Source of the DNA: a phage
DNA: 64,000 nucleotides
Direction: 5' to 3' (one strand)
Sequence record: PZ583741.1
Position numbers and translations under genes: made by a program. Positions 4,371 to 46,194 of this stretch are shown here, one piece after another. Within the stretch, counting starts at the first letter, position 1; every line of letters starts with the position of its first letter. Below the pieces are notes generated by a model. It was not told where the DNA came from, ran no database searches, and worked only from the letters and a program-made list of their open reading frames with translations.

Positions 4371-4871
4371 ATGACTCAAGAAGAATTAAAAAGCATCCTT
4401 AATTACAACAGTGAAACGGGAAAATTCCAATGGGTATCAATGAAGTGGAAAAAGTCAAACCGTGTTGGCAGCAAAAAGTCTAACGGCTATATGCAGGTGG
4501 CTATAGGTGGCAAGGTTTATTATCAGCACAGACTGGCTTGGCTTTATATGACTGGTGAGATGCCTGACTCAGAGATTGATCATATAAATGGAATTAGGGA
4601 TGACAACAGGTGGTGTAACTTGAGGTTAGCAACAAGATCACAAAATGAGATGAATACAGTACTCTCATCAGCAAACACCTCTGGTGTAAAAGGGGTTAGT
4701 TGGGATAAGAGGAATAAGAAATGGTGCGCAACAATAGTGATAAATAGAAAAACAGTATGGCTAGGAAGACATTCATCCATCGAGTCAGCAAAAGCGGTGA
4801 TAGAAAGAGCAAGAGCACATATACATGGTGATTTTGCTTGCGATGGAATAAGGCAAGAGAAGCGGGATTGA
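4371..4871 (+). CDS. HNH homing endonuclease with AP2 DNA-binding domain
   Basis: HRLAWLYMTGE...IDHINGIRDDNRWCNLR HNH motif; C-terminal AP2-like region. Confidence 0.85.
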   Translation: MTQEELKSILNYNSETGKFQWVSMKWKKSNRVGSKKSNGYMQVAIGGKVYYQHRLAWLYMTGEMPDSEIDHINGIRDDNRWCNLRLATRSQNEMNTVLSSANTSGVKGVSWDKRNKKWCATIVINRKTVWLGRHSSIESAKAVIERARAHIHGDFACDGIRQEKRD

Positions 4872-4902
4872 TGTGTGAGGCGCAGTATAATTCGCTGCGC
4901 AA

Positions 4903-4933
4903 TAAAAAAGCCCCGTAATGGGGCTTGTGTTTA
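4903..4933. terminator. bidirectional rho-independent terminator
   Basis: hairpin aagccccgtaatggggctt flanked by A-run and T-rich tract. Confidence 0.55.
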
Positions 4934-5149
4934 ATTGGCTTGCTCGGTGTTTTCTCTCTTCTTCCACATCTGTTTTAGCTGGAAATAAGCATAAGCCTCA
5001 TCACCATCTTTCGCATTGCGCTCCATTTGCTCACACCATGCTGATGGTTTTGGTGGCTCACTCTGCTGGCAATGTTGTTGGTTCATCAACAGATTCCTCA
5101 ACCGCAGTTTCGACGATGCGCACCAACGAACACTCAAGGTCCGGTGCAT
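4931..5149 (-). CDS. hypothetical protein (uncertain)
   Basis: 72-aa ORF; overlaps 5058..5366 in another frame. Confidence 0.25.
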   Translation of the reverse strand: MHRTLSVRWCASSKLRLRNLLMNQQHCQQSEPPKPSAWCEQMERNAKDGDEAYAYFQLKQMWKKRENTEQAN

Positions 5150-5366
5150 TGTAATTACCCGCCAGAAACAGAACGCTACCCGTGCTAATCAGCACCTGTT
5201 TTGCGTTTGCCTGCGACAGATTCTGCACGATGAATTGCGCCGTTTCTGTGCCGATTTTCAGCACTGCGCTGCCGTCGCTGTTCAGTGATACCAGTTGCGC
5301 GGAAGTGTCAGCAATATTGGTGAAGTTCGCGTTTCGTTGCGCGATTGTGATGTCGCAGAATGACAT
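5058..5366 (-). CDS. hypothetical protein (uncertain)
   Basis: 102-aa ORF abutting upstream gene. Confidence 0.3.
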   Translation of the reverse strand: MSFCDITIAQRNANFTNIADTSAQLVSLNSDGSAVLKIGTETAQFIVQNLSQANAKQVLISTGSVLFLAGNYNAPDLECSLVRIVETAVEESVDEPTTLPAE

Positions 5367-5635
5367 TATTTAATCTCTCCATTCAGTTCATTAACAATTA
5401 ACGTTGCATAGCCAGCAATATCTTTCCAGCTATCATCATAGGTCGGATCGCCATTCAGAATGCGCCCAATTTTGTGCTGAATCATGTCGAGTGCCTCGCG
5501 CTGGCTTGGCGTCAGGTTATGCCAACCATCCACTTCACGCATCACATCTTTCAGTTCCTGCATGATTTCAGCACCGTCTTTGAATTTGCCATATCTACTG
5601 CCGCGTTCGGTGATGAGTTGCTCTGTATCTTTCAT
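5366..5635 (-). CDS. hypothetical protein
   Basis: 89-aa ORF tightly packed with HNH gene. Confidence 0.5.
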   Translation of the reverse strand: MKDTEQLITERGSRYGKFKDGAEIMQELKDVMREVDGWHNLTPSQREALDMIQHKIGRILNGDPTYDDSWKDIAGYATLIVNELNGEIK

Positions 5636-6121
5636 TTACTTTAATGCTCCGTGATTTTTATGGAAACAATATTTTCCCTCAGCTGCCTTTCTGCATTCCG
5701 CAGCCATTGACAAGTTTGAGAATCTGCCAAGCGCAATCTGCTTTCCGTTCACGGCAATCTTTGCATACCATTTCTTACTCTTGTTATCCCAACTAACTCC
5801 GACAACATTACTCGTGTTATCAGATCGCATAGAAAGATTCTTAGCGTTCTGCTTTCTGCTTACCAATCTGAGATTCTCAATCCTATTATCATCACGAATG
5901 TGGTTTATATGATCGATCTCCATCCCCTCTGGTATCTCACCATTGTGCATTTCCCAAATTATTCTATGCATCAGTCGCACTTTTCCAAAGCAATGAACCT
6001 GCATGTACCCATTACCTGCCATGCTTCCTGCCAGCCTCCCTATTTTCATGTTTCTGTTTGTTTTTATCTTCCAATATAGCAACCCATCACGGTATTCGAA
6101 CACATCATTCCAATCCATCAT
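5636..6121 (-). CDS. HNH homing endonuclease with AP2 domain
   Basis: HRIIWEMHNGEIPEGMEIDHINH...DNRIENLRLV and C-terminal GxHKNHG; paralog of 45718 and 51801 genes. Confidence 0.85.
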   Translation of the reverse strand: MMDWNDVFEYRDGLLYWKIKTNRNMKIGRLAGSMAGNGYMQVHCFGKVRLMHRIIWEMHNGEIPEGMEIDHINHIRDDNRIENLRLVSRKQNAKNLSMRSDNTSNVVGVSWDNKSKKWYAKIAVNGKQIALGRFSNLSMAAECRKAAEGKYCFHKNHGALK

Positions 6122-6320
6122 CACTCTCCTTTATTGTGACTTTGTTATTCTCGTCAACACTGAAGTTGGCGCGAATTAAATCATACATGTCATTTTTAGA
6201 CATATCAGCCAGCGCCACATAGCAACGGGCAAAGTAGCGAACATCACGGAGAGTCAGCGGCTGCCGCTTCTCCACAATGCTGGTGATAATGTCCATCGGC
6301 TCGCGTCGTGGTCTTGGCAT
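6105..6320 (-). CDS. hypothetical protein
   Basis: 71-aa ORF with AAGGAG RBS. Confidence 0.5.
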   Translation of the reverse strand: MPRPRREPMDIITSIVEKRQPLTLRDVRYFARCYVALADMSKNDMYDLIRANFSVDENNKVTIKESDDGLE

Positions 6321-6347
6321 ATTTGCTACTCCTTCTCGAAAAACATC

Positions 6348-6392
6348 TTGACGTTTCTACATCACCTAGTCAATACTTATTGACGTAGATTG
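6348..6392. promoter_or_regulatory. divergent promoter/operator region with motif pair TCTACATCA (6356..6364) and TGACGTAGATTG (6381..6392)
   Basis: strand-switch intergenic region; motif in both orientations. Confidence 0.4.
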
Positions 6393-6419
6393 TACCACAA
6401 CGGAAAAGGTGATGTGGAA

Positions 6420-6617: not shown

Positions 6618-6677
6618 GGATGAAGGTTATCTGTGCGTTGAGCACGTTGTTATCAAATTCTATGGGAGAAATTACAA

Positions 6678-19256: not shown

Positions 19257-19964
19257 ATGAGCAATCGCACGCCACTAACAGAAATCGGGGAGATGCGCAT
19301 CTCGCTTTCTGACAGGAGTTTTTTCTTCAAGCCATCATTCCGCGCCATGAATGAAATCGGCACACCAAAAGAAATCGTCGAGGTGTATGCTAAGCTCAAC
19401 GGCATTGATTATGTTGCGCCATTGCAGCACGTGGAATACCTGCCATTTGGCGCGCAGATGCAGGTCATGAAAACCATCAGTAAGCCTGTGTATGGTCGCC
19501 ATGTACTGAGCGCGGCCTATATTGTCATGCAGTCATGCAGTGAAGATGATATTTCTGTGCTGATTGGTGGATGGAAACCAACACCACGCGGCGTGCGATA
19601 TGTCCCCAGCATCATGCCAGTGAGCGACATTATTATTATTGCGCGCAACCTGATGCAGCACGGCATCATTGGTAAGTCCCCACTCAAAGTACCTGAGCGT
19701 CTGGAAGAGCATGGCAAGAAAACAACAAACGAGTTTCATGCGTCGCAATACATCATCTCAGCACGCACGCATTTCGACATGACGCGCGATGAGGCTGAAA
19801 ACCTGTCCATGACAGAGTTTCAGATGATGATTAAGAATAAATATCCAGAGCCGAAAGGGTTAACGAAAGAAGAGCGCGCGGCAGAGTATAATCAGGCCAA
19901 AGCAGACCGTGAGCGCATGAAGGCACTGGCTGAACGCAAAGCGAAAAAAGCGAGGAATACATAA
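19257..19964 (+). CDS. putative tail assembly chaperone
   Basis: immediately upstream of tape measure gene. Confidence 0.45.
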   Translation: MSNRTPLTEIGEMRISLSDRSFFFKPSFRAMNEIGTPKEIVEVYAKLNGIDYVAPLQHVEYLPFGAQMQVMKTISKPVYGRHVLSAAYIVMQSCSEDDISVLIGGWKPTPRGVRYVPSIMPVSDIIIIARNLMQHGIIGKSPLKVPERLEEHGKKTTNEFHASQYIISARTHFDMTRDEAENLSMTEFQMMIKNKYPEPKGLTKEERAAEYNQAKADRERMKALAERKAKKARNT

Positions 19965-22339
19965 TGGCTGAAGAAGTCGGCGGAATTGTCTATGAAGTCG
20001 GGATGGATGTTAAAGGCCTGAAGGCTGGCGCGACAACAGCCAACAAGACTTTAGATGACCTTGAATCATCAACCAACAAAACCACAAGCGCGCTTGGCAG
20101 GCTGGATAAAAATGCCAGAAATGCTGGCAGCGGAATGAAGAATGCTGGCGGCGCAGCTTCAGGGCTAAAAACCAGTATGTCGATGCTGGCTAGCGCAATA
20201 TCCGTGTCACTGATTATCGAATGGGGTAAGCGATTCCTTGAGGTTGCTGATAACATGACGCAGCTTCAGGCAAGGATTGCTCGCCTGTCAACTGATGCGA
20301 AAACCGCGAACGAAACATTCAGTTCACTGGCAAATATCGCCTCAACCACTGGTGCAAGCCTGAGTGACACTACGAAGTTGTGGGAGACATTGACGTCATC
20401 ACTGAAAGAGGCTGGAGCGACAAATGCGCAGGTTCTGAACCTTACCGATACCCTGCAAAAAATAGGACGAATCGGCGGGTCATCAACCGAAGAAATGGCG
20501 AACGCATTACGTCAGTTCGGTCAGTCAATCGCATCTGGCACAATCCGTGCAGAAGAGTTCAACTCCATCCTTGAGCAGATGCCTGAGCTTGCTCGCCAGA
20601 TAGCTGCTGGTCTTGGTATTTCAATGGGTGAACTTCGAGCCAGAATGCTCGACGGAAAACTGACGGCGGAAGATGCACTGAACGCCATTCAGGACAGAAC
20701 AAGAGTCGTCAATGCTGAGTTTGAAAAACTTCCTCGCACAATGGATCAGGCTGTTGGTTCTCTTGAGATTTCATTCTCCAAACTTGTGGTTGCCGTTAAC
20801 GATGCTACTGACGCATCAAAAACAGCAGTTGAGATTATCGACCAGCTGGCAAAATACATTGATTTCCTCGGTGACAAGTCAACCAGCACGAGCGATAAAA
20901 TTCTGTCTCTCGCCACGGTTATATCGAAGTTAAACCCGGGCGCGTGGGCGCAAATGGGAGTTGATGCGCTTTTTGGTGATGACGATATTGAGAAGCAAAA
21001 ACAATATAACGATCAGGTTGAGCGATTCGTTAAGGCATCGGCGGAAGGCTACGAACAGACAAAAAAACAGGCTGAAGCAACAAAACACCTGAAGATTGCG
21101 CAAGCACCAACAAAAGATAAAAAAGGCAAAGGAAAGGGTAAGAGCGCAGAGGAACGTCAGGCTGAATCAGTCGCTGAAAAGCTGGAGAAATTACGCCAGC
21201 AGACCATGCTTAATGCCACATCTACCAGCGAATTATCCCGCGAGCAAGCCATTCTCAATGCTCAGCAATCACTTGGAAAGGCGGCGACTCAGGAGCAAAT
21301 AAAACTGGCTGGTGAATATGCCGCTAAGATTTGGGACCAGAAGAATGCGTTGAAGGAGCAGGCAGAAGCGGAGAAGGAAAGGCAGCGTGTAGAAAAATCA
21401 TATCAGGGACTACGCGCCATTGCGTCACCAACGACTGGCATTGACAGTGAATACCAGCAACGCATGGCTGACCTTGATGCTTATGCTGCTGCGTACCCGC
21501 AGAAAATTACGGAGATTGAACAGACTCGCGCAGCAATTGAAGCGCAATATCGCCAGCAGCGAATGGATGCCATGTGGGCAGAATGGCAGCAACAAAGCCT
21601 CGGAGCGCAACTTTTCGGTACGGCGCTTGATTCGGCAATGAGTACGGCATCAAACAGCATAACCGGATTACTGACAGGTACAATGAGTGTACAGGATGCA
21701 ATGCGCAGCCTCGGCTCTACTGTACTGAACTCTCTGGTAAATAGTTTCGTCGAAATGGGTGTGCAGTGGGTTAAATCTGCGGTTATGGGGCAGACTGCGC
21801 AGGTTGCAGCAACCGCTACCACAACAGCGGCGCAAACAGCAGGACTGGCAACTACCACAGCCGCCTCAACTGCGGCGGCAGCCACCACTACGGCGGCATG
21901 GACCCCAGCTGCAATTGTTGCTTCAATCGGTTCATTCGGCGGTGCGGCTGCAATTGGTGTAGGTGCTGTACTTGGGGCGTTGGCGATGGGGATAGCTGGC
22001 AAGCGCAAGAATGGCGGTCCTGTTAGCGCCGGAAGCATGTACGAAGTGGGCGAAAATGGCTTGCCTGAAATATTCCAGGCGTCCAACGGTCGCCAGTACA
22101 TGATTCCCGGTAACGATGGCTCAGTTATCAGCAACAAAGACCTGACAGGCGGTGGTAGTGGCGTTGTGGTTTATAATAACGTGATAAATAACAGCTCAGC
22201 GCAGGTTAGCAGCAGCGCCAGAGATAACGGTGACGGCAGCGTGACGATTGAGACGATTGTGAGTGATATTTCTGAAAATGGCCCGATAGGGCAAGCCATC
22301 TCAAGAAACTACAACACCAACAGACGAGCAACAGAGTAA
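19964..22339 (+). CDS. tail tape measure protein
   Basis: 791 aa, coiled-coil, Ala/Thr/Gly-rich hydrophobic segment. Confidence 0.85.
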   Translation: MAEEVGGIVYEVGMDVKGLKAGATTANKTLDDLESSTNKTTSALGRLDKNARNAGSGMKNAGGAASGLKTSMSMLASAISVSLIIEWGKRFLEVADNMTQLQARIARLSTDAKTANETFSSLANIASTTGASLSDTTKLWETLTSSLKEAGATNAQVLNLTDTLQKIGRIGGSSTEEMANALRQFGQSIASGTIRAEEFNSILEQMPELARQIAAGLGISMGELRARMLDGKLTAEDALNAIQDRTRVVNAEFEKLPRTMDQAVGSLEISFSKLVVAVNDATDASKTAVEIIDQLAKYIDFLGDKSTSTSDKILSLATVISKLNPGAWAQMGVDALFGDDDIEKQKQYNDQVERFVKASAEGYEQTKKQAEATKHLKIAQAPTKDKKGKGKGKSAEERQAESVAEKLEKLRQQTMLNATSTSELSREQAILNAQQSLGKAATQEQIKLAGEYAAKIWDQKNALKEQAEAEKERQRVEKSYQGLRAIASPTTGIDSEYQQRMADLDAYAAAYPQKITEIEQTRAAIEAQYRQQRMDAMWAEWQQQSLGAQLFGTALDSAMSTASNSITGLLTGTMSVQDAMRSLGSTVLNSLVNSFVEMGVQWVKSAVMGQTAQVAATATTTAAQTAGLATTTAASTAAAATTTAAWTPAAIVASIGSFGGAAAIGVGAVLGALAMGIAGKRKNGGPVSAGSMYEVGENGLPEIFQASNGRQYMIPGNDGSVISNKDLTGGGSGVVVYNNVINNSSAQVSSSARDNGDGSVTIETIVSDISENGPIGQAISRNYNTNRRATE

Positions 22340-22370
22340 AAAGAAGCCCCTCACGGGGCTTTGTTCATTA
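22340..22370 (+). terminator. rho-independent terminator
   Basis: hairpin agcccctcacggggct. Confidence 0.55.
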
Positions 22371-27405: not shown

Positions 27406-29673
27406 ATGGCTACCACACCAACCAATAAACCAATTCCGTCAGAAGACCCGCGCGACCTGAAGTTTAATGCTGGTAAAATTGACGAAGTTGTCAACTCTGA
27501 CAATCACTACTACACCGATCGCTTTGGTCATCGCCGCTTTACAATTGCAGGATTCCAACACACCGCAGAAGAAGCAATTCGTAACTATGGCTACATCACA
27601 ATGGATAGCTTCGAGGATGGCGCGACGCTGACGTTACCGAATCAGGTTTTGCGCTATGAAGTTACTGGAGAATATTACCGCTGGGATGGTGAATTCCCTA
27701 AAACAGTCGCTTCTGGTTCAGCTCCTGCATCCGCTGGCGGTGTTGGAATTGGGAAATGGCTGAGCGTCGGTGATGCAGTCCTGCGCAGCCAGATTTCAGA
27801 CCCGGATGGTGCGTCCAATTACCCGGAATTGCAGATGGCAAGATGGCGTGATGAGGGTGATGTTCGAGGCTGGGGTGCTAAAGGGGATGGTGTAACGGAT
27901 AGTACGGAGAATATAGCTGCTTCACTAAATTCTCAAAAAGCTGTCGTAGCATCAGACGGTGTATTCTCTAGTTCTGGTATTAATAGTAATTACTGTAACT
28001 TAGACGGTAGAGGCAGTGGTGTACTAAGTCACCGTTCAAGTACAGGTAACTACTTAGTATTTAACAATCTACGCTCAGGTCGCTTAAGTAATATTACGGT
28101 AGAAAGTAATAAGGCGACCGATACCACTCATGGGCAGCAGGTATCTCTTGCTGGTGGCAATGATGTTACTATAAGTGATGTTAATTTCTCAAACGTTAAG
28201 GGCACTGGTTTCAGTTTAATCACATACCCTAATGATGCACCCTCTGATGGGCTTATGATTAAAGGCATTCGAGGTAGCTACTCCGGCTATGCTACTAATA
28301 AGGCGGCTGGATGCATACTTGCTGATTCCTCGGTTAACTCCCTCATAAATAACGTCATTGCTAAGAACTACCCTCAGTTCGGAGCCGTAGAGTTGAAAGG
28401 TACAGCCAGTTACAACATAGTCAGTAATGTTATAGGGACAGATTGCCAGCATGTAACTTACAACGGTACTGAGGGACCAATGGCTCCCTCTAATAACCTT
28501 ATCAATGGGGTAGTGGCTAATAATCCTAAGTATGCAGCGGTTGTTGCAGGCAAAGGTAGTACGAACTTAATATCAGACGTGCTCGTAGATTACTCAACCT
28601 CTGATGCTAGGCAGGCTCATGGTGCTACCGTAGAAGGTTCTGATAACGTCATAAATAATGTGCTTATGTCAGGATGTGATGGTACTAACTCTTTAGGGCA
28701 AACTCAGACTGCTACAATTGCGCGCTTTATAGGTACAGCTAATAACAACTATGCGTCTGTATTTCCTAGCTACAGTGCTACAGGTGTTATTGCTTTCGAA
28801 TCAGGTTCTACCCGTAACTTCGTAGAGGTAAAGCATCCGGGAAGGAGAAACGACCTTCTCAGTAAGGCTGGTACTATTGAAGGTGCAGTTACTATTGACG
28901 GCACTAGTAATAGCAACGTAGTGCACGCTCCTGCATTAGGACAGTACATAGGCAGTATGTCCGGTAGGTTCGAATGGCGGATTAAGTCCATATCACTTCC
29001 GTCAGGCGTTCTTACCTCGGCTGATAAGTACAGAATGCTTGGGGATGGTGATGTGTCATTAGCTGTAGGTGGGGGTACTTCTTCTCAAGTTCGCCTATTT
29101 ACTTCTGATGGTACTTATCGGGCAGTATCACTCACCAAGGGTAACGTGCGTCTTCCTACCAGTAGCACTGGTTATTTGCAGTTAGGTTCTGATGCAATAA
29201 CCCCAGATCGTACTGGTACATACGCATTAGGTTCCGCAAGTCTAGCATGGTCTGGCGGTTTTACTCAATCAGAATTCATTGTTGTCTCAGATGCTAGGGA
29301 TAAAACAGAGCCTCTTATTATCTCAGATGCTTTACTGGATGCTTGGTCTGAAGTTGACTTTGTGCAGTTTCAGTACTTGGACCGAATTGAGGAGAAGGGC
29401 GCAGACTCAGCTAGGTGGCACTTCGGCATCATCGCTCAGCGAGCTAAGGAGGCATTCGAACGTCACGGTATAGATGCACATCGTTATGGCTTCCTGTGCT
29501 TCGACAGTTGGGATGCTGTATACGAGGAAGATGCCAATGGCTCTCGTAAACTGATTACACCAGCAGGTTCCCGCTACGGTATACGTTACGATGAAGTACT
29601 GATATTAGAGGCTGCGTTGATGCGGCGTACTATTAAGCGTATGCAGGAAGCATTAGCTGTTATGTCTAAGTGA
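27406..29673 (+). CDS. tail fibre / tailspike with C-terminal S74 intramolecular chaperone domain
   Basis: SDARDK autoproteolysis motif at codon ~628 (nt 29287); central repetitive beta-helix-like region. Confidence 0.8.
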   Translation: MATTPTNKPIPSEDPRDLKFNAGKIDEVVNSDNHYYTDRFGHRRFTIAGFQHTAEEAIRNYGYITMDSFEDGATLTLPNQVLRYEVTGEYYRWDGEFPKTVASGSAPASAGGVGIGKWLSVGDAVLRSQISDPDGASNYPELQMARWRDEGDVRGWGAKGDGVTDSTENIAASLNSQKAVVASDGVFSSSGINSNYCNLDGRGSGVLSHRSSTGNYLVFNNLRSGRLSNITVESNKATDTTHGQQVSLAGGNDVTISDVNFSNVKGTGFSLITYPNDAPSDGLMIKGIRGSYSGYATNKAAGCILADSSVNSLINNVIAKNYPQFGAVELKGTASYNIVSNVIGTDCQHVTYNGTEGPMAPSNNLINGVVANNPKYAAVVAGKGSTNLISDVLVDYSTSDARQAHGATVEGSDNVINNVLMSGCDGTNSLGQTQTATIARFIGTANNNYASVFPSYSATGVIAFESGSTRNFVEVKHPGRRNDLLSKAGTIEGAVTIDGTSNSNVVHAPALGQYIGSMSGRFEWRIKSISLPSGVLTSADKYRMLGDGDVSLAVGGGTSSQVRLFTSDGTYRAVSLTKGNVRLPTSSTGYLQLGSDAITPDRTGTYALGSASLAWSGGFTQSEFIVVSDARDKTEPLIISDALLDAWSEVDFVQFQYLDRIEEKGADSARWHFGIIAQRAKEAFERHGIDAHRYGFLCFDSWDAVYEEDANGSRKLITPAGSRYGIRYDEVLILEAALMRRTIKRMQEALAVMSK

Positions 29674-29749
29674 GTAATACTAGTACGGTTAGATCAGTAG
29701 AGTTGGTTAACAGTAGCCTACGTACTACCAGGCTATTATTTATCAAGGT

Positions 29750-29782
29750 ATAAAACCCCGCCCAGGCGGGGTTTGTTTTATC
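29750..29782. terminator. bidirectional terminator
   Basis: hairpin aaaccccgcccaggcggggttt. Confidence 0.6.
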
Positions 29783-29783: not shown

Positions 29784-30293
29784 TCAGAACGGAATGTCGT
29801 CGTCGAAGTCAATCGGCGGCTCATTGCCTCCTTGTGGGCTTTGTTGTTTTTGTGGCTGTTGTTGTTGCGGATTTGTCCCCCATCCACCTTGAGGTTGCTG
29901 TCCTGATTGCTGGCGTGGTTGTTGCTGATCAGAATCATCACGTCTACCACCAAGCATCTGCATAACACCACCCATCTGCGGAATGACAATCTCAGTGGTG
30001 TATTTTTCAACGCCGCTCTGGTCTGTCCATTTGCGAGTGAGTAATTTACCTTCCACGTACACCTGAGAGCCTTTCCGCAGGTATTCACCAGCAACTTCTG
30101 CCAGCTTCCCGAAGATAACCACGCGATGCCATTCAGTTTGCTCTTTCTTTTCACCTGTGGCCTTGTCATTCCACTGTTCTGATGTTGCAACGGAAAGATT
30201 GGCAATTGCAGAACCTGATGCTGAATATCTAATTTCCGGGTCATTACCAACTCGACCAAGGATTATGCACTTATTAATACCAATCGAAGACAT
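29784..30293 (-). CDS. ssb: single-stranded DNA-binding protein
   Basis: OB-fold region, Gln/Gly-rich linker, C-terminal DFDDDIPF tail. Confidence 0.9.
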
Positions 30294-30793
30294 TACTTGA
30301 ATCTCCCGTTTTTATCTCTTAATCTGCCATTATGATTCTCTGTGGCGTGTAATGATGCGTGCTCTGACTTCGTCATAAGCATTAGGTTACTTGGATGGTT
30401 GTTTGTTTTATCATGGTCTATATGATGAACGCATTCATTGTGAAACAACCTCCTCCCAATAATGCCTTCCATAACTACAACATGCTCTCCTCTTCCTTTG
30501 TTTTCACCCATAGTTATCTCGACATAACCGTTCGGTTTTACAGAGCGCCCCTTGCCAACTCCTTTCTTTGATTTTGATATATTTTGCTTCCATTCTTCAG
30601 TAAACTCTCGTTTTTTACCCCTAAGTCCTGAGCCAAGCCTTCCCTCTGCGGCAGCAATTCTTATTGCATCCCCTCTGCTTCTCAATATTCCGGCTTTCTT
30701 AAATCTAAACCTCAATGTTGACATGGCTATTCCTGTTTCATTGGAGATTTGAGGGATGCTCATGCCAGACAAATACATATCAAACTCATTCAT
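30293..30793 (-). CDS. HNH endonuclease
   Basis: [18 protein letters not shown] motif; GGAGG RBS before ATG at 30793. Confidence 0.75.
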
Positions 30794-30873
30794 ATGCACC
30801 TCCTTGTGCAATATAGTAATTTACAACCATCAAGTCAACTTTTAATTACTTTATTTACGCCGCGTGCCATTTA

Positions 30874-32967: not shown

Positions 32968-34876
32968 TATTCTCTCCTGTAAAATCTTTTCTGTGGATTA
33001 TGTCGCGACCTTTATCATTAATACGATGCGTGATGCGTTTTGGCGCTTTAATCAATCCCGCATACATCATGAACTGCTTGGCGTTCTGGCATTTCAGGAT
33101 TTTTCCAGCCATTGACTTATCATCAAGGTGAGGAAATACTGCCTTTGCCTTGAACATATTTTTCATGTGAGTTGCGCCGCCATAAGGGTAGAAAACTTCG
33201 TTAGCCCAGCCTTCTTTGCCATCACAACGATTAATCCAGTAGCGATATAAAATACCATCTCCATCCTTCGTTAACTGGACTTTGAAATCCATAACATCAG
33301 CCCACTCATTATCCGTATACGCACGCTCATTCAGTGCCGCATTCGGGTCACGCAAAACATGATCACAATGCCGGCAATAGCGCGCTGTCGGGTCGTTTTT
33401 AGTACCGCATCCATCATCAAAAATACGGATTCCATGCTTATCGAAGCCGCAACGGATGTAACTGAAAAACTCCTCGCAGCGACCATCTTGCGACAATGCA
33501 TCTTTGCCAATGCAGCGGCGCGCAGATGGGCTGTTCATTGTTCCGCATTTCGGACACGGAACTTGTTCGCCGCTGCGTTTTGAACGTTGCGCTTCAGCCT
33601 CTTCCAGAATAGGGTCTTCATACAGCTGACCAAGCTCAAACATCGTTCCTGAGAAATCAAGAACCAGATGGTCTTCTTTATGATACCCGGCATCAATTTG
33701 CTCTTTCTTCAGCAGGCGCATTCCGCGACCAAGCAGCTGAACAAGAAGAGTGAGTGACATTATTTTTCGTAATATGCAGCTCGTATCCCATAACGGTATA
33801 TTTACGCCAGTGGTAAGGGCTGCTATCTGGAATGTGAATTTTTTACGCCCGGTGTATGCATCTTTTAGAGCCTTCCTTCTGGCTTTTGACCCAATATCTT
33901 CTGTAACTATTGAATAACTTCCTTCAGGCAAATATTTTGCCGCCTCCTGGCAATGCTTTTTACCAGCACATGTAATTAGCACTCCGTTCCTGTTTTTAGT
34001 CAACTCCATAACCTTGAGCATGATTTTCTGCGTCAACGTACCTTGCTCAAGAATTTCTTTCTGCATCTGCTTGAGCTGCTCGGCGGTAAAGTCCTGAGTG
34101 CCATCAACATCTGAACCATGAAAATCCGAAAGGTCATAATGCAGACTATCAACATCATGAAGACCAAAAATTGTTGGCACAAGAAAACCGTTTTCAACCA
34201 TGTACTTGGTGTCTATGTTGATAATCTCTTTCTTCCAGAAAGCGCCTTTTATTGATGTAGTTCCGCGAAACGGTGAGCCTGTATAACCTATTATTCTTAA
34301 CTCATGGCCGTGCTTATCTTTGCACCTTTTCATTAGCTCATTAATTATCACTGCATACTGCGTATCACCATCATTAACAACGTCAATGTCATTAACCATA
34401 TGATTTTCATCGATCAGCAGAAATCTTGGGCAAAAGTCAGAAAGCGCGCCTTTTGCAATAACATTCCCTGACTCATCCTTTTTGTCAAACAAAGCATTTG
34501 CAACAGTACCCTCAGAGCCACAGATTATTGGGTACGTAGAACTTTTCCTACCCAACGAAGCACTGAATAGTGAGTTTCTAACACCAAGCGCCCATAGCTC
34601 TTCCGCATCTTGCTCCACTATTTCGCCCTGTCTTGATAAAATCATCCCTGAATAGCCCATTTCCTGAAAACGCTTTGCTATCATGGCAATCATTAGTGAC
34701 TTTCCGCTACCGACGCTTGCTGTTACATAGCTCGGGCCAACATAATGACGAATAACATCGCCAGTTAACTTATATATCAACCACTGATAAGGTCTTGGCT
34801 CGATATCACCAGTATCCAAGCAGGATTTCAGCAAGTTAATGTCAATCTCTGAAATCATCTTGTCTATTTTGTGCAT
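32942..34876 (-). CDS. superfamily-2 DNA helicase with C-terminal zinc ribbons
   Basis: Walker A SVGSGKS, Walker B LLIDENH, Cys clusters. Confidence 0.75.
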   Translation of the reverse strand: MHKIDKMISEIDINLLKSCLDTGDIEPRPYQWLIYKLTGDVIRHYVGPSYVTASVGSGKSLMIAMIAKRFQEMGYSGMILSRQGEIVEQDAEELWALGVRNSLFSASLGRKSSTYPIICGSEGTVANALFDKKDESGNVIAKGALSDFCPRFLLIDENHMVNDIDVVNDGDTQYAVIINELMKRCKDKHGHELRIIGYTGSPFRGTTSIKGAFWKKEIINIDTKYMVENGFLVPTIFGLHDVDSLHYDLSDFHGSDVDGTQDFTAEQLKQMQKEILEQGTLTQKIMLKVMELTKNRNGVLITCAGKKHCQEAAKYLPEGSYSIVTEDIGSKARRKALKDAYTGRKKFTFQIAALTTGVNIPLWDTSCILRKIMSLTLLVQLLGRGMRLLKKEQIDAGYHKEDHLVLDFSGTMFELGQLYEDPILEEAEAQRSKRSGEQVPCPKCGTMNSPSARRCIGKDALSQDGRCEEFFSYIRCGFDKHGIRIFDDGCGTKNDPTARYCRHCDHVLRDPNAALNERAYTDNEWADVMDFKVQLTKDGDGILYRYWINRCDGKEGWANEVFYPYGGATHMKNMFKAKAVFPHLDDKSMAGKILKCQNAKQFMMYAGLIKAPKRITHRINDKGRDIIHRKDFTGENSEKAIQAA

Positions 34877-35397
34877 TATTTTACCCTACCAAATTCACCA
34901 TGATACTTTTTTGATGCTTCCGCATAAACTTTTGCTGCTTCTTCTTTTGTATCATATCTGCCGAGCCATATTTTTTTATTATTTACATGTATAGAGCAAG
35001 TCCATTTTTTTGTTTGCTTGCAAAAACCAACCCCCTTTACACCGGATGTGTTATGGCTTGGAATCCTCATGTTTCTTAAATTTCCATTAAAGTTTGTTTC
35101 TCTTAGATTTTCTATCCTGTTATTCAATCTATTACCATCTTTATGGTCTATTATTAACTCAGGCCAATAACCATGCACTAAAGCCCAAATTATTCTATGA
35201 ACCTTTATATCAACACCTAAAAAGCCAACCTGAAGATATCCACTTACAGTCTTAGAACCTGCAATAGCGCCACGTTTAACCCTGTTTGTTGTTGTTCTTT
35301 TCCATATGAGATTTATTCCGTCATATGAAAAATACTCCCGCAACGTGGATACTGGTATTGACTTCTCTTTTAACTTCATCAATTCGAAATCATTCAC
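34876..35397 (-). CDS. HNH homing endonuclease with AP2 domain
   Basis: HRIIWALVHG...IDHKDGNRLNNRIENLR; AP2-like C-terminus. Confidence 0.8.
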   Translation of the reverse strand: MNDFELMKLKEKSIPVSTLREYFSYDGINLIWKRTTTNRVKRGAIAGSKTVSGYLQVGFLGVDIKVHRIIWALVHGYWPELIIDHKDGNRLNNRIENLRETNFNGNLRNMRIPSHNTSGVKGVGFCKQTKKWTCSIHVNNKKIWLGRYDTKEEAAKVYAEASKKYHGEFGRVK

Positions 35398-38710: not shown

Positions 38711-38717
38711 ACTCACC

Positions 38718-39470: not shown

Positions 39471-39544
39471 TTGTTGTGTGATTAATAATTGCGCAATTGG
39501 TCATGTTTCAACAGAACACACTGATGCGACATCTGAAAATCATA

Positions 39545-39574
39545 TTGACGTAGAATTACAACTGATGTAGATTG
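39545..39574. promoter_or_regulatory. early promoter/operator with motif copies TTGACGTAGAAT and TGATGTAGATTG
   Basis: A-module motif at strand-switch region. Confidence 0.35.
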
Positions 39575-39603
39575 AACTCATCGAAACAAACGAGGGTGAA
39601 GAG

Positions 39604-39789
39604 ATGAAAGAAGAAAGCACGTACAGCATTGACCAGATGAAGTTATTCAGCGATATATGCATGGCATTGTCACAACAGGTTCCAAGCCTGCCTGCTGATA
39701 TGCGCTCAAATGCCATCATTGATGCGGCAAACATGATTTGCGAGGCATATGCGATGACTGAAGATGAATATAAGGATTCGAAGAAATGA
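39604..39789 (+). CDS. small acidic early protein
   Basis: 61 aa, GAGGGTGAAG RBS. Confidence 0.5.
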   Translation: MKEESTYSIDQMKLFSDICMALSQQVPSLPADMRSNAIIDAANMICEAYAMTEDEYKDSKK

Positions 39790-40188
39790 CAGGCGCAGCA
39801 TTCGAGCTTATCGCCAGTCTGGTTATCGCGGCATTCATTATCATCGCAGTGGCAGTTTATAAATCAGGATATAAGGAGTGACAGAATGAGCAGCTGGCAT
39901 AATGAACACATCATGCAATGGTATCGTCGCCGCATTAAGACAATCATTAACTCTCACGAGGTGCAATAAATGGCAAAGACTATCTATCGTCGCGAGAAGC
40001 TGGAATAAGAACTCGGTCACGTTGGCGCGCAGAACTTCATGAGCAAGCAGGCACGCAATGCAATGGAATCTATCCGCGTAAATCGCGTTGTGCGCGTGTT
40101 CAATGGCGAGGGTAAACGAAGAGTAATGGATGAGCTGATTATCGTATTTTGACCTCGATTCAGCGCTCTTATTTTTAATGGTGATGAT

Positions 40189-40422
40189 ATGGCAAAAGTA
40201 AAAACATATGAGTTCTGGTTTGTGCAGAACAAAATTCATGCAAGCAAGATAATCAAGCGAGCGCACTGGTGGAATAAGTGGCTAATCCTGTCAGGATGCA
40301 TTGTGCTGGCAAAGTGCAAATTCAAAGCGATTGACATCACAGATGAGGATTCACTCAAAATCGCAAAGATTGAGTTTGAAGAAGATGGCTATTACGAAGA
40401 AATTATGGGGGTTAGGGTATGA
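40189..40422 (+). CDS. hypothetical early protein
   Basis: 77-aa ORF. Confidence 0.45.
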   Translation: MAKVKTYEFWFVQNKIHASKIIKRAHWWNKWLILSGCIVLAKCKFKAIDITDEDSLKIAKIEFEEDGYYEEIMGVRV

Positions 40423-40820
40423 GTGAAGTTAAAACATACGCAGTGAATTGCAATGACGCATGGCTAAACACCGAAGGTGATAACATCTCCGGGTCATACG
40501 TTAAGTACAAAGACCATCAGGAAGTGGTTGCCGCTATTGAGGCCAAGTGCGCGGCGCTAGCAGCGGAGAATGCGGCGCTTAAACAGTCGGAGAAGGAATT
40601 TAATAACTTCTGTCGTCAGGAGTACTACGGTTGGGAGGACAACTTCACGGAAACCCCAGCCACCGATGATTTTCTGGTTGAAATTGAACGCAAAGCAATC
40701 CGCAAGTTCATTAACAGTATTGAACACATTCTTCGCGACAAGTTGTCACCGTATGACACAGAAGAGATGCTTGAGGATATGCGTATTTTCCTGGAAGAGC
40801 AGAGTGGTGAGCAAAAATGA
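40419..40820 (+). CDS. hypothetical early protein
   Basis: 133-aa ORF, overlapping stop/start. Confidence 0.5.
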   Translation: MSEVKTYAVNCNDAWLNTEGDNISGSYVKYKDHQEVVAAIEAKCAALAAENAALKQSEKEFNNFCRQEYYGWEDNFTETPATDDFLVEIERKAIRKFINSIEHILRDKLSPYDTEEMLEDMRIFLEEQSGEQK

Positions 40821-42187: not shown

Positions 42188-42206
42188 CTGATTTATAATA
42201 ATTAAT

Positions 42207-42290
42207 GCGGCTAGGGGGCACCCGAAAAGCGACTCATCACCGCCTGCCGCATTCACTTCAATGATGCCCTGATGAGGAATCTATATATGG
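42207..42290 (+). promoter_or_regulatory. conserved 5' leader element, copy 2 (same hairpin/SD arrangement as 4280..4370)
   Basis: aligned by eye to copy 1. Confidence 0.5.
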
Positions 42291-44806
42291 CACGCAAAAG
42301 ACTGTCAGCACCAGCAATTGAAAAACTCGAAGAGATTATTGGCGATGGCGTGATTGATACGCCTGAATCCGCGGTGTTCGGTGTTGTTAATACAGATAAG
42401 CAGATTGTTCGCAAACTAAAAATGACGCAAAGCGGAGTTGATGACGTTAGCGACTCTGATATTAACGTTGATCACCTGATACCAGAAAAGCTGGAAAAGC
42501 TACTTTACCCCAAGCGAAATAAGATTGTGTTTGGCGGGCGCGGATGCTTAGCCATCGGCACAATGGTTAGGATGTTTGATGGTAGCCTAAAACGCGTAGA
42601 GGATATCGCTGTTGGCGATAAGGTTATGGGTCCAGACAGTAAACCACGAAATGTTTTAAGCATCTGCCGTGGGTTTGATGACATGTATACGGTTCATCAA
42701 AAATATGCTGAGGACTACACTGTCAACTCAAGTCACATACTGTCATTACGAAAGATTCCATCTGCTATCAGTGACGAGACAAAAACACCGGATGGTAAAA
42801 GAATTTATCGTTATTACCCAAATGACCCTGAAATACTTAATATCGGTGTTTCAGAATATTTGTCGCGCGCAACTTCCACGAAGTTCCGTCATGTCTTTAA
42901 AGGGTGGCGAACAGGATGGGATTTTCAGGAACAAAGCGTTCCAATTGACCCGTACTTTCTTGGTTTATGGTTAGGTGATGGCTCATCTCGTAGTGTTGAA
43001 GTATGCACGCCTGATCCAGAGATAGTTGACTACCTTCACGGTGTGGCAAGCCAATATGGGATGCAGGTAAAGGTTCGCGACGATGATAGATGCCCTGTCT
43101 ATGCGATAACTAATGGTCGAGCTGCTGGCATGGGGAAAAACACCAACCCTTTACTAACTAAAATGCAGCAGCTTGGGGTGATTAATAATAAACACATACC
43201 TGACTGCTATATTAAAAACAGCAGACAGGTAAGACTTCAGATTCTGGCTGGGCTATTGGATACTGATTCGCATTACCACAAAGAAAAGAAAAGCTATTGT
43301 TTTACATCAATAAATAAAGATATAGCCTTCTCTTTGATGGATGTGGCAAGATCACTTGGCTTCAAGTCAAGCATAATCAAAAAGACCGATGTCACCTTTG
43401 AGTATAAAGGTGAGAAAAGAATATACGAAAAGGATGTGTGGGAGGTGTTCGTTAGTGGTGAACTTCATACAATCCCATGCCGAGTAAAAAGGAAGATAGC
43501 AGAGAAAACCAAGTCAACCCGTGGAAAGATGACTGAGGTGTCATTGTCTTATGCCGGGCATGGTGTATACGCTGGATTCACTCTTGATGGCGATCATCTT
43601 TTCTTGCTTGCTGATGGCACAGTTACACACAACAGCGGAAAAACAAGAACAGTAACTACAATACTTACGGAGCGTGCACGCTTTAAGCCTGACAGGATAG
43701 CTTGTTTCCGTGAGATTCAGCAGTCTATTGAGGATAGTTCGTATCAGGAACTGAAAGACGAGATTGACAGGAAGGGCGAGACAAAAGAGTTTCGCGTAAT
43801 CAACAACGAAATAACACACAAGGTAACGAAAGCAAAGTTCCGCTTTAAAGGTCTGTATCGCAACCAGACGACCGTTAAAGGCTTTGCTGGCATTACAGTC
43901 GCTTGGGTTGAGGAGGCTGAAAACGTTAGCCAGACAAGCTGGGAAATCCTCACTCCAACTGTTCGCGCTGATGGCTCTGAGATATGGGTGACATTCAACC
44001 CAAATAAGGAGCATGACCCCACATGGAAGACGTGGGTTGAGCCGTTTTATAGCAAACTGCGCTCAAGTGGCGGTATTTACGAAGACGAAGAAAACCTGAT
44101 TATTGAATGTAACTATTCAGATAATCCGTGGTTTTGGGATACGCCACTACCCAGCCAAATGCAACGAATGAAAGAGACAGACTTCGACCGCTATCAATGG
44201 GTTTGGGGTGGTCGCTTTAACAAGAGGAATGACGAGCAGGTCTTTGGCGGCAAATGGCGCATTGATAACTTTGAGGTTAAACCTGAATGGCACGGCCCAT
44301 ACTTCGGGATGGACTTCGGGTTTTCCACTGATCCTACCGCAATGATTGAAGTTTACATCGAAGAACTACCAGGTGCACGGCGCAACATTTATATTAATCG
44401 CGAATATGGCAAGGTTGGCCTTGAGATTACCGATACACCAGCTGCGATGGAGCAATCATTCCCGATGGCTAAGCGCGCGCGATGGTATGCAGACTGCGCT
44501 CGACCGGAAACCATCAGCCACATCAAGCGTTCTGGCTTTGATATTCATCCATGCACAAAATGGCCGGGAAGCGTTGAGGATGGCGTAACGTGGCTGCGCG
44601 GCTGCGACAGTATCATCATCCATGAGCGATGCAAGGAAATGCAGAATGAAGCGGCAATGTACAGCTATAAGGTTGATAAGCTGACCGGAAATGTACTCAC
44701 GGATATTGTTGATGCATATAACCATTACTGGGATGCCGTTCGCTATGCGCTTAATGACCACATCGTCCAGCGCGGTAGCGGAATGCTAATCCGGCGCAGG
44801 AGATAA
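42287..44806 (+). CDS. terminase large subunit, intein-containing
   Basis: Walker A GRG|SGKT split by intein; C-terminal nuclease region. Confidence 0.9.
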   Translation: MARKRLSAPAIEKLEEIIGDGVIDTPESAVFGVVNTDKQIVRKLKMTQSGVDDVSDSDINVDHLIPEKLEKLLYPKRNKIVFGGRGCLAIGTMVRMFDGSLKRVEDIAVGDKVMGPDSKPRNVLSICRGFDDMYTVHQKYAEDYTVNSSHILSLRKIPSAISDETKTPDGKRIYRYYPNDPEILNIGVSEYLSRATSTKFRHVFKGWRTGWDFQEQSVPIDPYFLGLWLGDGSSRSVEVCTPDPEIVDYLHGVASQYGMQVKVRDDDRCPVYAITNGRAAGMGKNTNPLLTKMQQLGVINNKHIPDCYIKNSRQVRLQILAGLLDTDSHYHKEKKSYCFTSINKDIAFSLMDVARSLGFKSSIIKKTDVTFEYKGEKRIYEKDVWEVFVSGELHTIPCRVKRKIAEKTKSTRGKMTEVSLSYAGHGVYAGFTLDGDHLFLLADGTVTHNSGKTRTVTTILTERARFKPDRIACFREIQQSIEDSSYQELKDEIDRKGETKEFRVINNEITHKVTKAKFRFKGLYRNQTTVKGFAGITVAWVEEAENVSQTSWEILTPTVRADGSEIWVTFNPNKEHDPTWKTWVEPFYSKLRSSGGIYEDEENLIIECNYSDNPWFWDTPLPSQMQRMKETDFDRYQWVWGGRFNKRNDEQVFGGKWRIDNFEVKPEWHGPYFGMDFGFSTDPTAMIEVYIEELPGARRNIYINREYGKVGLEITDTPAAMEQSFPMAKRARWYADCARPETISHIKRSGFDIHPCTKWPGSVEDGVTWLRGCDSIIIHERCKEMQNEAAMYSYKVDKLTGNVLTDIVDAYNHYWDAVRYALNDHIVQRGSGMLIRRRR
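42545..43633 (+). mobile_element. intein (363 aa) with LAGLIDADG homing endonuclease domain inside terminase Walker A motif
   Basis: starts CLAIGT, ends VTHN followed by extein Ser; two LAGLIDADG motifs (LGLWLGDGSS, LAGLLDTDSH). Confidence 0.8.
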
Positions 44807-44807
44807 A

Positions 44808-44840
44808 AATAAAGCCCTCATCTGAGGGCTACTTTCATTT
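44808..44840. terminator. bidirectional terminator
   Basis: hairpin agccctcatctgagggct. Confidence 0.55.
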
Positions 44841-44987
44841 AATCAATGCTCGTCGACCAAGTTCAGCAATCCATTCCGCCGCATCCTCTATTTTGTTGAA
44901 CTCATAAAGATGCTTGCCGTCTTCCATGACATAAAACAGAATGCGACCAAATTTATTTTTCTTTGCGCTAAATTTAACATCTTTCAT
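44835..44987 (-). CDS. small hypothetical protein (50 aa)
   Basis: manual ORF with strong GGAAGGAG RBS, convergent with terminase. Confidence 0.4.
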   Translation of the reverse strand: MKDVKFSAKKNKFGRILFYVMEDGKHLYEFNKIEDAAEWIAELGRRALIK

Positions 44988-45014
44988 ATTTTCACTCCTT
45001 CCGTTTCATGAGTT

Positions 45015-45120
45015 CAATCTACATCACAAGCATATCCACGTCAACATTTATTGTTGTTGATAAATCTGCATCACCACACTTGACCAATCTACACCGAGCG
45101 CATAGTATAATCTACATCAG
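45015..45120. promoter_or_regulatory. cluster of at least four ATCTACATCA-type motif copies with -10-like TATAAT
   Basis: copies at 45015, 45063, 45086 and 45108. Confidence 0.4.
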
Positions 45121-45139
45121 GCTTACCGGAGATATCACT

Positions 45140-45346
45140 ATGCGCAGCTATGCAGGATTTACACAGGAGGAAAAAGAACAGGTTTATTCACTGGCGCGGG
45201 CTGGCGTGCCTGATGAGGTGATTTGCTGTCGGTATGATATCGACGAGGACTTCCTGCTGCGTGTTATTGATGACGTTTTCGTTAACCTGCAAGAGAAGCG
45301 AGGATATAAGGGTATCTGCTGCAAGAATGATTTTTTGAGAGGGTGA
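45140..45346 (+). CDS. hypothetical protein
   Basis: ATG at 45140 with GGAG RBS. Confidence 0.45.
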   Translation: MRSYAGFTQEEKEQVYSLARAGVPDEVICCRYDIDEDFLLRVIDDVFVNLQEKRGYKGICCKNDFLRG

Positions 45347-45508
45347 TGTGGTGATTATTGAAAAAACAAATGAATGCCACAGTCTGTATATAAATACAGA
45401 ACTAGTCATCAATTTAAGGCAATGTGACGACTGGGTTCAGCTTGACAAACACCAAGCCGCGCAACTAATCGAAGTCCTGCAACGCTGGGTTAATGGTGAG
45501 GAGATTGA

Positions 45509-45718
45509 ATGATGAGCGTTTATTTTTATTGCGGTCACATTGAGCGACAAGGAAGCGTAGCGAGCGTTGGTAGTTTCTGCGGATTATCAATTGGACCTGA
45601 TGCTGTTAGCGCATATGAAGATGTCATGAGAGCGCAGGTGAAGGAAATCCAGTCAATCACTGAGAGCGGCGCTTTTAATCTTTCTGTTATTTTTGATAAA
45701 TTCGAAAAGGTGGAGTGA
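45509..45718 (+). CDS. hypothetical protein
   Basis: 69-aa ORF. Confidence 0.45.
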   Translation: MMSVYFYCGHIERQGSVASVGSFCGLSIGPDAVSAYEDVMRAQVKEIQSITESGAFNLSVIFDKFEKVE

Positions 45719-46194
45719 TGATTGATTGGGTATCTTTATTTGATTATGATGGAGCGTCTTTGGTGTGGAAGCATGGAAGGGGAGGTGTTTCCGTTGGCAG
45801 CATTGCGGGAACGGTTAATGCTGGCGGGTACATTCAGCTCAAAGTTAACGGAAGATTTTATTATGCCCACAGAATTATATGGGAAATGCATAACGGTCCT
45901 ATACCGGAAGGTATGGAGATTGACCACATAAATCATAACAAGGCGGACAACAGGATTGAGAATTTGCGTCTTGTTCGACACAAAACTAACACTAAAAACG
46001 CGCCTAAATACAAAAATAACACCAGCGGCGTTACTGGTGTGAGTTGGTATAAGAGAGATAAAAAATGGCTAGCACAAATAATGGTTGATGGCAATTACAT
46101 ACGTCTTGGTCTTTTTGATAATTTCGAAGCAGCAGTCGACGTGAGAAAGGAAGCAGAACTAAGGTATGGATTTCACAAGAACCACGGCGCTTGA
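45718..46194 (+). CDS. HNH homing endonuclease with AP2 domain
   Basis: HRIIWEMHNGPIPEGMEIDHINH...DNRIENLRLV; C-terminal GFHKNHG. Confidence 0.85.
   Translation: MIDWVSLFDYDGASLVWKHGRGGVSVGSIAGTVNAGGYIQLKVNGRFYYAHRIIWEMHNGPIPEGMEIDHINHNKADNRIENLRLVRHKTNTKNAPKYKNNTSGVTGVSWYKRDKKWLAQIMVDGNYIRLGLFDNFEAAVDVRKEAELRYGFHKNHGA

Follow-up and report, generated by a model that had tools for sequence, protein, structure and literature searches.

Results

Homing elements in the window

The stretch of phage DNA analyzed here (sequence record PZ583741.1, 64,000 nucleotides; hereafter the window) consists of two unrelated contigs lying end to end, with their junction at 47403/47404, and this report concerns the homing elements carried by the first of them, module A, together with a related gene in the second, module B. 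Positions 1–127 are identical to positions 47277–47403, and because this exact terminal repeat of 127 bp is an assembly overlap pointing to a circular de Bruijn-graph assembly, module A is taken as a complete genome of 47,276 bp. The ~47 kb given in a preliminary description of this DNA is thus borne out once the overlap is removed. The portal gene of module A spans the circular junction; its open reading frame (ORF) seems to continue into module B at 47403/47404 by chance. Module A shares ~90% nucleotide identity with HC6, VSt472, swi2, Segz_1, Sf11 and Bas77-81 (best matches cover 50–78% of each query half), which form the Skatevirus group of E. coli and Salmonella siphoviruses and are treated as one cluster in the BASEL paper (PMC11990801). 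Module B has 95.8% nucleotide identity to vB_Ec-G8 (G8 below) and ~90% to SU57, 2725-N35 and DTL. The two modules and the elements of interest, named below by their first coordinate, are as follows.

1–47403, module A, circular Skatevirus-like siphovirus contig with 47,276 unique bp
47404–64000, module B, a portion of a T1-like (Drexlerviridae) phage genome that is not related to module A
4371–4871, plus strand, HNH-AP2 gene of the HRLAWLYMTG type (HNH_3 6e-17; AP2 3e-07, 31.0 bits)
5636–6124, minus strand, HNH-AP2 gene of the HRIIWEMHNG type (HNH_3 2e-23; AP2 3e-04, 21.3 bits)
22351–23430, minus strand, T5orf172/MUG113 endonuclease gene (Pfam MUG113 3e-11, T5orf172 1e-08, DUF723 1e-08)
30293–30811, minus strand, HNH gene of the true H-N-H type without AP2 (HNH_3 6e-10; many matches to PHROG HNH families)
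34876–35397, minus strand, HNH-AP2 gene of the HRIIWALVHG type (HNH_3 1.5e-15; AP2 4e-09, 37.0 bits)
42287–44806, plus strand, large terminase (TerL) gene, host of the intein (Terminase_3 3e-31; Terminase_3C 8e-12)
42545–43633, plus strand, predicted class 1 intein with LAGLIDADG domain, 363 amino acids (Hom_end_hint 6e-20; Hom_end 1e-08; LAGLIDADG_3 4e-07)
45718–46194, plus strand, HNH-AP2 gene of the HRIIWEMHNG type (HNH_3 4e-23; AP2 2e-05, 25.5 bits)
51801–52313, plus strand, module B HNH(-AP2-like) gene (HNH_3 9e-22)

All eight elements named in the preliminary description therefore exist, each where it had been placed or a few codons away. Module A holds seven of them (four HNH-AP2 genes, one plain HNH gene, one T5orf172-type gene and one LAGLIDADG intein), amounting to 4,659 bp or 9.9% of the genome, and no further homing-type gene was detected there in a Pfam census of the other 55 ORFs or a six-frame phmmer scan. 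Simple regular expressions for GIY...YIG and LAGLIDADG matched nothing; both elements were found by Pfam profiles. All six HNH genes of the two modules match HNH_3 in Pfam, with E-values from 6e-10 to 2e-23. The four AP2 matches all have E ≤ 3e-4, and the Pfam gathering score for AP2 (33.3 bits) is exceeded only in the 34876 copy (37.0 bits). The only solved structural relative of the 5636 protein is I-HmuI (1U3E), with which its catalytic DH, N and N residues align, and the same residues are readable in the other copies. Module A had been credited with five HNH-AP2 genes; four are of this type, and the fifth, at 30293, is an HNH gene without AP2.

Census of the same genes in relatives

Applied with the same hidden Markov models to seven complete genomes besides module A, the census returned the following numbers of homing endonuclease genes (HEGs).

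Module A, 7
VSt472, 6
Segz_1, 4
swi2, 3
HC6, 3
ASO78B, 2
Bas81, 1 plus a pseudogene
DTL (45.8 kb, T1-like), 6, all HNH-AP2

Of 50,697 phage records searched by tblastn with the 5636 protein, 3,293 contain the family, at 4,757 places in all. Records of the Skatevirus group have two to four such places each, and module A has four by the same criterion.

Occupied and empty sites of the free-standing HNH genes

Insertion sites were compared between module A, six complete relatives and IMG/VR loci. The 4371 gene lies downstream of the spanin gene; its ORF opens at 4347, and the likely start is at 4371, preceded by the ribosome-binding site (RBS) GAGGAA. It is absent from all six isolate relatives, in which the interval measures ~152 bp as against 784 bp here, and an ortholog with 89% amino acid identity occupies the same site in Seszw_1-like genomes. 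A terminator-like hairpin follows the gene directly, and the annotation of ASO78B places a terminator at the equivalent empty site.

4908–4926, no strand assigned, bidirectional terminator-like hairpin directly after the 4371 HNH gene

The 5636 gene is co-oriented with its neighbors inside a leftward operon. Its site is empty in five relatives and holds a 56%-identical HNH gene in Segz_1, and an ortholog with 99% amino acid identity is present at the same site in IMGVR_UViG_3300045988_008801, a contig that lacks the 4371 gene. An 89-amino-acid ORF adjoins the 5636 gene (5366–5635, minus strand) and matches only positions 78–163 of the 163 positions of phrog_17775 (VSt472 gp17); relatives keep the N-terminal half of this phrog_17775-type gene, and in module A the HNH gene stands in its place.

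The 30293 gene, with a likely ATG start at 30793, lies between the SSB and Erf recombinase genes. Among the relatives only HC6 has a copy (90.6% nucleotide identity, E = 8e-111), and the other five have a 15-bp empty site. The 34876 gene has the helicase gene on one side and the divergently oriented primase gene on the other, and the same gene occurs at the same site in ASO78B (94% nucleotide identity). Elsewhere this site is filled differently: VSt472, Segz_1 and swi2 hold other HNH genes, HC6 has an 88-amino-acid ORF of unknown type, and Bas81 has an unannotated HNH gene split into two ORFs (40098–40685). This split gene is a decaying homing endonuclease gene. Finally, the 45718 gene, whose ORF opens at 45715 and whose likely start is at 45718, lies in a variable region between the terminase and portal genes. 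It is absent from this site in all six relatives, and no homolog of more than 60% identity was obtained in the phage records or IMG/VR, the best reaching 57–59%; in the 50,697 phage records, neither 5636 nor 45718 has a homolog above 60% identity.

Four genes (5636, 30293, 34876 and 45718) point in the direction of their neighbors and lack an obvious promoter. The 4371 and 22351 genes form autonomous cassettes and are each placed between the end of an operon and a bidirectional terminator hairpin.

The T5orf172-type endonuclease gene

The 22351 gene runs antisense between the tape-measure gene and tail genes. Its protein combines a C-terminal T5orf172/MUG113 domain, in which a GYVYFL...KVGIT motif is readable, with four N-terminal DUF723 zinc-finger repeats, and matches phrog_681 ("endonuclease", 2e-95). 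The preliminary description had called it a GIY-YIG gene. It has no match to the canonical Pfam GIY-YIG family at E ≤ 0.01, and the assignment is retained at the level of the clan only, to which T5orf172 and MUG113 belong. Empty versions of the site exist in HC6 and Bas81, with 24 and 64 bp, respectively, at this point. In VSt472 and swi2 it is taken up by related endonucleases, and Segz_1 and ASO78B have another gene there; VSt472 has a T5orf172-related gene at a second site as well. The tape-measure gene and the convergent T5orf172 gene have one hairpin in common.

22343–22362, no strand assigned, bidirectional terminator-like hairpin

In the adjoining tape-measure gene, a length difference was seen in Segz_1 (19371–22664), where it measures 3,294 bp against 2,376 bp in the window and the other relatives.

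The terminase intein

The listed TerL ORF of 844 amino acids opens at 42272, and alignments set the likely start at 42287 (MARKR...). Aligned with the intein-less TerL of swi2 and VSt472, it contains an insert that splits the Walker A motif at GGRG/SGKT, begins with Cys1 (CLAIG...) and ends with a C-terminal His-Asn pair followed by Ser+1 (VTHN/S). The LAGLIDADG-type motifs LGLWLGDG and LAGLLDTDS are readable in the intein alignment. Judged from these sequence features, the insert is a class 1 LAGLIDADG intein that is predicted to splice. An intein of this kind had been proposed for module A, and Hint and LAGLIDADG domains within the TerL ORF, together with intein-less alleles in relatives, support the proposal.

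Across 23 sampled TerL loci, the intein is present in seven (including those of Segz_1 and five IMG/VR relatives) and absent from 16. An HNH-AP2 gene lies upstream of TerL in none of the seven intein-bearing loci as against 10 of the 16 intein-less ones, although the loci are not phylogenetically independent and the intein alleles are closely related among themselves. The HNH gene between leader and TerL and the intein in the TerL P-loop may be alternative, competing occupants of one target region.

Mobility and its proposed mechanism

The best explanation for the whole, to which we give a probability of roughly 85%, is that module A is the complete genome of an uncultivated Skatevirus-like siphovirus that has gathered seven homing elements independently, with no exchange between modules A and B. 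Every element is absent from some close relatives, with empty and occupied sites mapped gene by gene, and six of the seven have orthologs of 85–99% identity at the same site in other relatives. About 14 segments of module A are rare among the relatives, and seven of these are the HEGs. The elements are considered mobile because their empty sites are clean (784 versus 152 bp for 4371, 15 bp for 30293, 24 bp for 22351 and 572 versus 18 bp for the module B gene). The synteny comparison suggested in the preliminary description was run, and the insertions are not fixed in the relatives. Different HNH genes, furthermore, fill the same helicase-primase site in different genomes, and the copy in Bas81 has decayed. 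As far as sequence comparison can tell, this patchy distribution is a signature of homing, and the elements behave like homing elements.

In the mechanism that we propose, the seven selfish elements would have arrived independently, six as free-standing endonuclease genes in gaps between conserved genes and the seventh as the P-loop intein of TerL. When HEG-bearing and HEG-less phages infect the same cell, each enzyme would nick or cut the HEG-less allele in or near the neighboring conserved gene, by analogy with T4 seg/mob and I-HmuI. The recombination system of the phage would then repair the break from the HEG-bearing genome, and the repair would copy the endonuclease gene together with flanking sequence. 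Module A encodes Erf, a PDDEXK exonuclease, SSB and a VRR-NUC nuclease, and the first three are the components envisaged for this repair.

Several points weigh against this reading. Homing of all these genes is argued from likeness to T4 seg/mob and I-HmuI, and deletion or ordinary illegitimate recombination could likewise produce a sporadic distribution. Of the four AP2 matches in module A, three lie below the Pfam gathering score, and the T5orf172 family is not known to have homing activity. The census of relatives covers seven complete genomes, supplemented by per-record counts of tblastn places. The assembly is of metagenome style and may be a chimera of co-occurring strains.

An alternative that we consider unlikely is that some of the nucleases are kept because they benefit the phage, by excluding co-infecting relatives, aiding terminase cutting or degrading host DNA. 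The helicase-primase site does hold an HNH gene or its remnant in all seven genomes examined, HNH genes adjoin the terminase genes in module B and four relatives, and marker exclusion by the HEGs of T4 is documented (PMC2988022). Each individual gene is nonetheless dispensable in some close relative, the module B HNH gene being missing from the 96%-identical G8 and from DTL. The occupants of a given site are also non-orthologous, one of them is a pseudogene, and the proteins fall into the I-HmuI-like HNH_3 family.

It is more doubtful still that the count is inflated by a chimeric contig drawn from co-occurring strains that each carry fewer HEGs. Such an origin would agree with the de Bruijn-graph assembly shown by the 127-bp terminal overlap and with the many related contigs of 46–49 kb from a single metagenome (3300045988), but module A has the length and gene order usual in its group. 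As the cultured isolate VSt472 carries six HEGs and DTL likewise six, a total of seven in module A does not require an artefact.

Relationships among the HNH-AP2 genes

The five HNH-AP2-type proteins of modules A and B are related on alignment, as had been supposed in the preliminary description, with pairwise E-values from 1e-18 to 1e-53 and pairwise identities of 34–54%. Two paralogous groups had been proposed, of which one is real. The HRIIWEMHNG proteins (5636, 45718 and the module B protein) share 47–54% identity and, with the threshold set at 50%, belong to a single cluster of 56 sequences. The second, a combined HRLAW/HRIIWAL group, dissolves: the 4371 and 34876 proteins are 38–39% identical and enter separate small clusters, with 4371 nearer to 5636 (45%). 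A neighbor-joining tree of HNH-AP2 homologs has weak support except for near-identical pairs, and owing to this poor resolution the groups were taken from pairwise identities and single-linkage clusters rather than from topology. Sequence relationships thus place the four module A copies in three HNH-AP2 lineages, alongside one unrelated HNH gene, and not in two groups.

These relationships also bear on the idea that the HNH-AP2 copies multiplied by duplication or transposition within this genome, without independent acquisition. Homology among the four copies extends from end to end, and a leader-plus-HNH cassette at 4275–4871 resembles the leader-plus-HNH unit ahead of TerL in relatives, a likeness that suggests one or more ectopic moves in this lineage. 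As a general account, however, duplication is as improbable as a chimeric count: identities within the genome are only 37–54%, three of the copies have much closer orthologs (85–99%) in other genomes, and the neighbor-joining tree mixes copies of different genomes, with weak bootstrap support. Independent acquisition is the preferred account.

The HNH gene of module B

The module B HNH gene lies between TerS (51226–51732) and TerL (start at 52306). The RBS of TerL is contained in the 3′ end of the HNH gene, which extends 8 nucleotides into TerL. It represents a clean insert, the gap between TerS and TerL measuring 572 bp here and 18 bp in DTL and G8. Nucleotide identity to G8 is 97% on the TerS side and 80% on the TerL side, a drop that a recombination breakpoint at the insert would explain. 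The gene had been described as another HNH-AP2 gene between the terminase subunits; its position and its HNH_3 domain agree with this, and AP2 has no Pfam match of its own at E ≤ 0.01. In comparison with the AP2-bearing 5636 paralog, the protein aligns over its full length, the AP2 region included (48% identity). Copies of 96–99% amino acid identity at the same TerS-TerL site are confined to five T1-like phages, and identities elsewhere are below 60%. A role as an HK97 gp74-like packaging protein was considered and rejected, because the gene is absent from G8 (96% identical where it matches module B) and DTL; the HNH_3 (I-HmuI-like) family is, we presume, distinct from that of the small packaging HNH proteins.

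The preliminary description had read the HRIIWEMHNG genes of the two modules as a sign of exchange between the two phages or of a common pool. The pool holds only trivially, in that 3,293 of the 50,697 phage records have a member of the family, and exchange is not indicated, given the 47–48% identity of the copies and the restriction of the close orthologs of the module B gene (96–99%) to T1-like phages. A recent exchange of these genes between the two phages of the window receives next to no credence from us: although the HRIIWEMHNG motif is common to the 5636, 45718 and module B genes, a stretch of 69–95 bp over the catalytic core has 78–86% nucleotide identity among the three, and they cluster together at the 50% threshold, the overall A/B identity is only 47–48% at the amino acid level, the near-identical orthologs of the module B gene sit at the same TerS-TerL site in five T1-like phages (<60% elsewhere), the 5636 copy has its own 99% ortholog in a Skatevirus-like contig, the motif occurs in 47 of 109 sampled homologs (a count biased by the use of IIWEMHNG as one scan pattern), and the modules are separate contigs merely adjacent in the window.

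An int-alpA-type RNA leader ahead of TerL and two HEGs

Three copies of a structured leader were located in module A, and the gathering score of the corresponding Rfam family, int-alpA RNA (RF02996), is 35.8 bits.

42204–42267, plus strand, int-alpA RNA leader upstream of TerL (RF02996 42.6 bits, E = 1.9e-05, above the gathering score)
4285–4349, plus strand, int-alpA-type leader upstream of the 4371 HNH gene (RF02996 28.4 bits, below the gathering score; nhmmer 1.8e-14)
23448–23511, minus strand, int-alpA-type leader upstream of the T5orf172 gene (RF02996 30.1 bits, E = 0.031, below the gathering score; nhmmer 2.8e-16)
4275–4365 (plus strand), 23448–23521 (minus strand) and 42194–42281 (plus strand), cassettes of −10 box and leader ahead of the 4371 HNH gene, the T5orf172 gene and TerL, respectively

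The 4371 and 22351 genes are each preceded by a cassette of ~90 bp, made up of a TATAAT box, the structured leader and an RBS, which is homologous to the sequence in front of TerL; the −10 box before the 4285–4349 leader reads TGnTATAAT. The leaders were compared by Rfam, by an nhmmer profile and by a stem-pairing filter, since the MAFFT alignment was inconsistent in the columns of the paired positions of helices 2 and 3. Over an alignment of eight sequences, 97% of the cells pair and two pairs show compensatory changes, and the two HEG-linked copies fit the same three-helix structure as the TerL copy.

In Skatevirus-like loci, each of the 18 leader copies found with the nhmmer profile precedes TerL, a 4371-type HNH-AP2 gene or a T5orf172-type gene. 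Bas81 has an HNH gene between leader and TerL, and the same HNH-TerL arrangement is found in VSt472, HC6 and ASO78B. A degenerate junction pattern matched at least 120 stretches in IMG/VR, and 87 of 121 pattern matches keep 7 or 8 of the 8 outer-stem pairs with many different stem sequences, as expected of a covarying stem. The 76 distinct first ORFs downstream in IMG/VR include eight with HNH_3, five with HNH, two with T5orf172, one with NUMOD3 and one intein-bearing terminase; about one-fifth are HNH- or T5orf172-type nucleases, a raw share with no background correction. RF02996, so far recognized as a motif by bioinformatics only, is named for integrase and alpA contexts, whereas here it stands before TerL and homing endonuclease genes of a lytic siphovirus. 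No AlpA-like regulator was detected in module A by regular expression or in the Pfam census of 55 ORFs. Functional data on int-alpA were not found in the literature searched, and the motif is not treated in the main text of its discovery paper. We tentatively propose, at odds somewhat short of even, that free-standing HEGs of unrelated nuclease families could travel together with the int-alpA-type leader as a portable module for their expression, or could insert behind it as a landing pad. The association is the one lead worth following here, as a testable handle on cassette expression and possibly on landing sites.

Other features of the window

In module A, the C-terminal two-thirds of the tailspike gene (27779–29751) is unmatched at the nucleotide level in the six relatives, and the ORFs of this module include a Peptidase_S74 (endosialidase chaperone) domain; the probable cause is a swap of a host-range module. 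An inverted repeat of 70 bp (77% identity) links the early region (39542–39611) with the region downstream of the terminase gene (44980–45047).

In module B, a tRNA-Arg gene (anticodon TCT; 50839–50916, plus strand) lies upstream of the small terminase gene, and a promoter-like repeat occurs in five copies, each consisting of AAATAGCACGAATTGCTAAA, a spacer of ~20 nucleotides and TATAGTTAC and each followed by an RBS and ATG. A classification of module B as a Dhillonvirus was dropped, the taxonomy of DTL being Drexlerviridae/T1-like.

48405–48510, plus strand, promoter-like repeat
48840–48945, plus strand, promoter-like repeat
49012–49110, plus strand, promoter-like repeat
49900–50005, plus strand, promoter-like repeat
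53857–53960, plus strand, promoter-like repeat

Most of these copies precede small early ORFs.

Discussion

Module A adds one more small siphovirus in which about one-tenth of the genome is selfish homing DNA, and the general understanding of homing endonucleases is unchanged by it. What has been gained is a map of seven hot spots at which elements insert into Skatevirus-group genomes, with empty and occupied alleles matched. With such alleles, crosses on homing and marker exclusion can conveniently be made in a natural system.

The load of HEGs had been called very high. At 9.9% of the genome it is high, but "very high" overstates it, given the six to eight such genes in VSt472, DTL and the Xanthomonas phages. 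Xop411, Xp10 and OP1 (~44 kb) have eight, seven and six free-standing HNH genes, respectively, mostly HNN-AP2, and multiple HNH copies are cited for T1, Rtp, T5 and bIL170 (PMC2248197). The load of module A is at the top of the known range for its group and for small siphoviruses, not outside it.

The closest comparison is with VSt472, Segz_1, HC6, ASO78B and Seszw_1, which share the backbone of module A (~90% nucleotide identity) and its hot spots of insertion. For five of the seven elements an ortholog is present in at least one of these isolates, and for a sixth (5636) in an IMG/VR contig at 99% identity; the combination found in module A occurs in no single relative. At the level of the protein, I-HmuI (1U3E), the HNH homing nickase of the Bacillus phage SPO1, aligns through its N-terminal DNA-binding region and HNH(N) core (E = 0.0014, residues 3–107). 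I-HmuI is encoded in an intron, whereas the module A genes are free-standing and have an AP2-like C-terminal DNA-binding module.

Xop411, Xp10 and OP1 resemble module A in genome organization: all are siphovirus genomes of ~44–47 kb with six to eight dispersed free-standing HNH genes, mostly combining an HNN catalytic motif with AP2, and the copies vary between close relatives. They differ in host and phage lineage, and module A, unlike them, also has a T5orf172 enzyme, a terminase intein and an int-alpA-type leader on two genes.

The free-standing endonucleases of T4, seg (GIY-YIG) and mob (HNH), move by intronless homing; T4 has 15 HEGs, which take up 11% of its coding capacity, and many of them are promoter-less cassettes (PMC2988022). 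Like the elements of module A, seg and mob genes occupy intergenic gaps between conserved genes, are patchy among relatives and mix promoter-less cassettes with cassettes that have their own promoter. Cleavage and homing are demonstrated for the T4 enzymes, whereas those of module A are known from their genes, and the AP2 and T5orf172 architectures of module A set it apart from T4. The share of the genome is similar in the two phages (11% of coding capacity in T4, 9.9% of the genome in module A), and the density of HEGs is higher in module A, with seven in 47 kb as compared with 15 in 169 kb.

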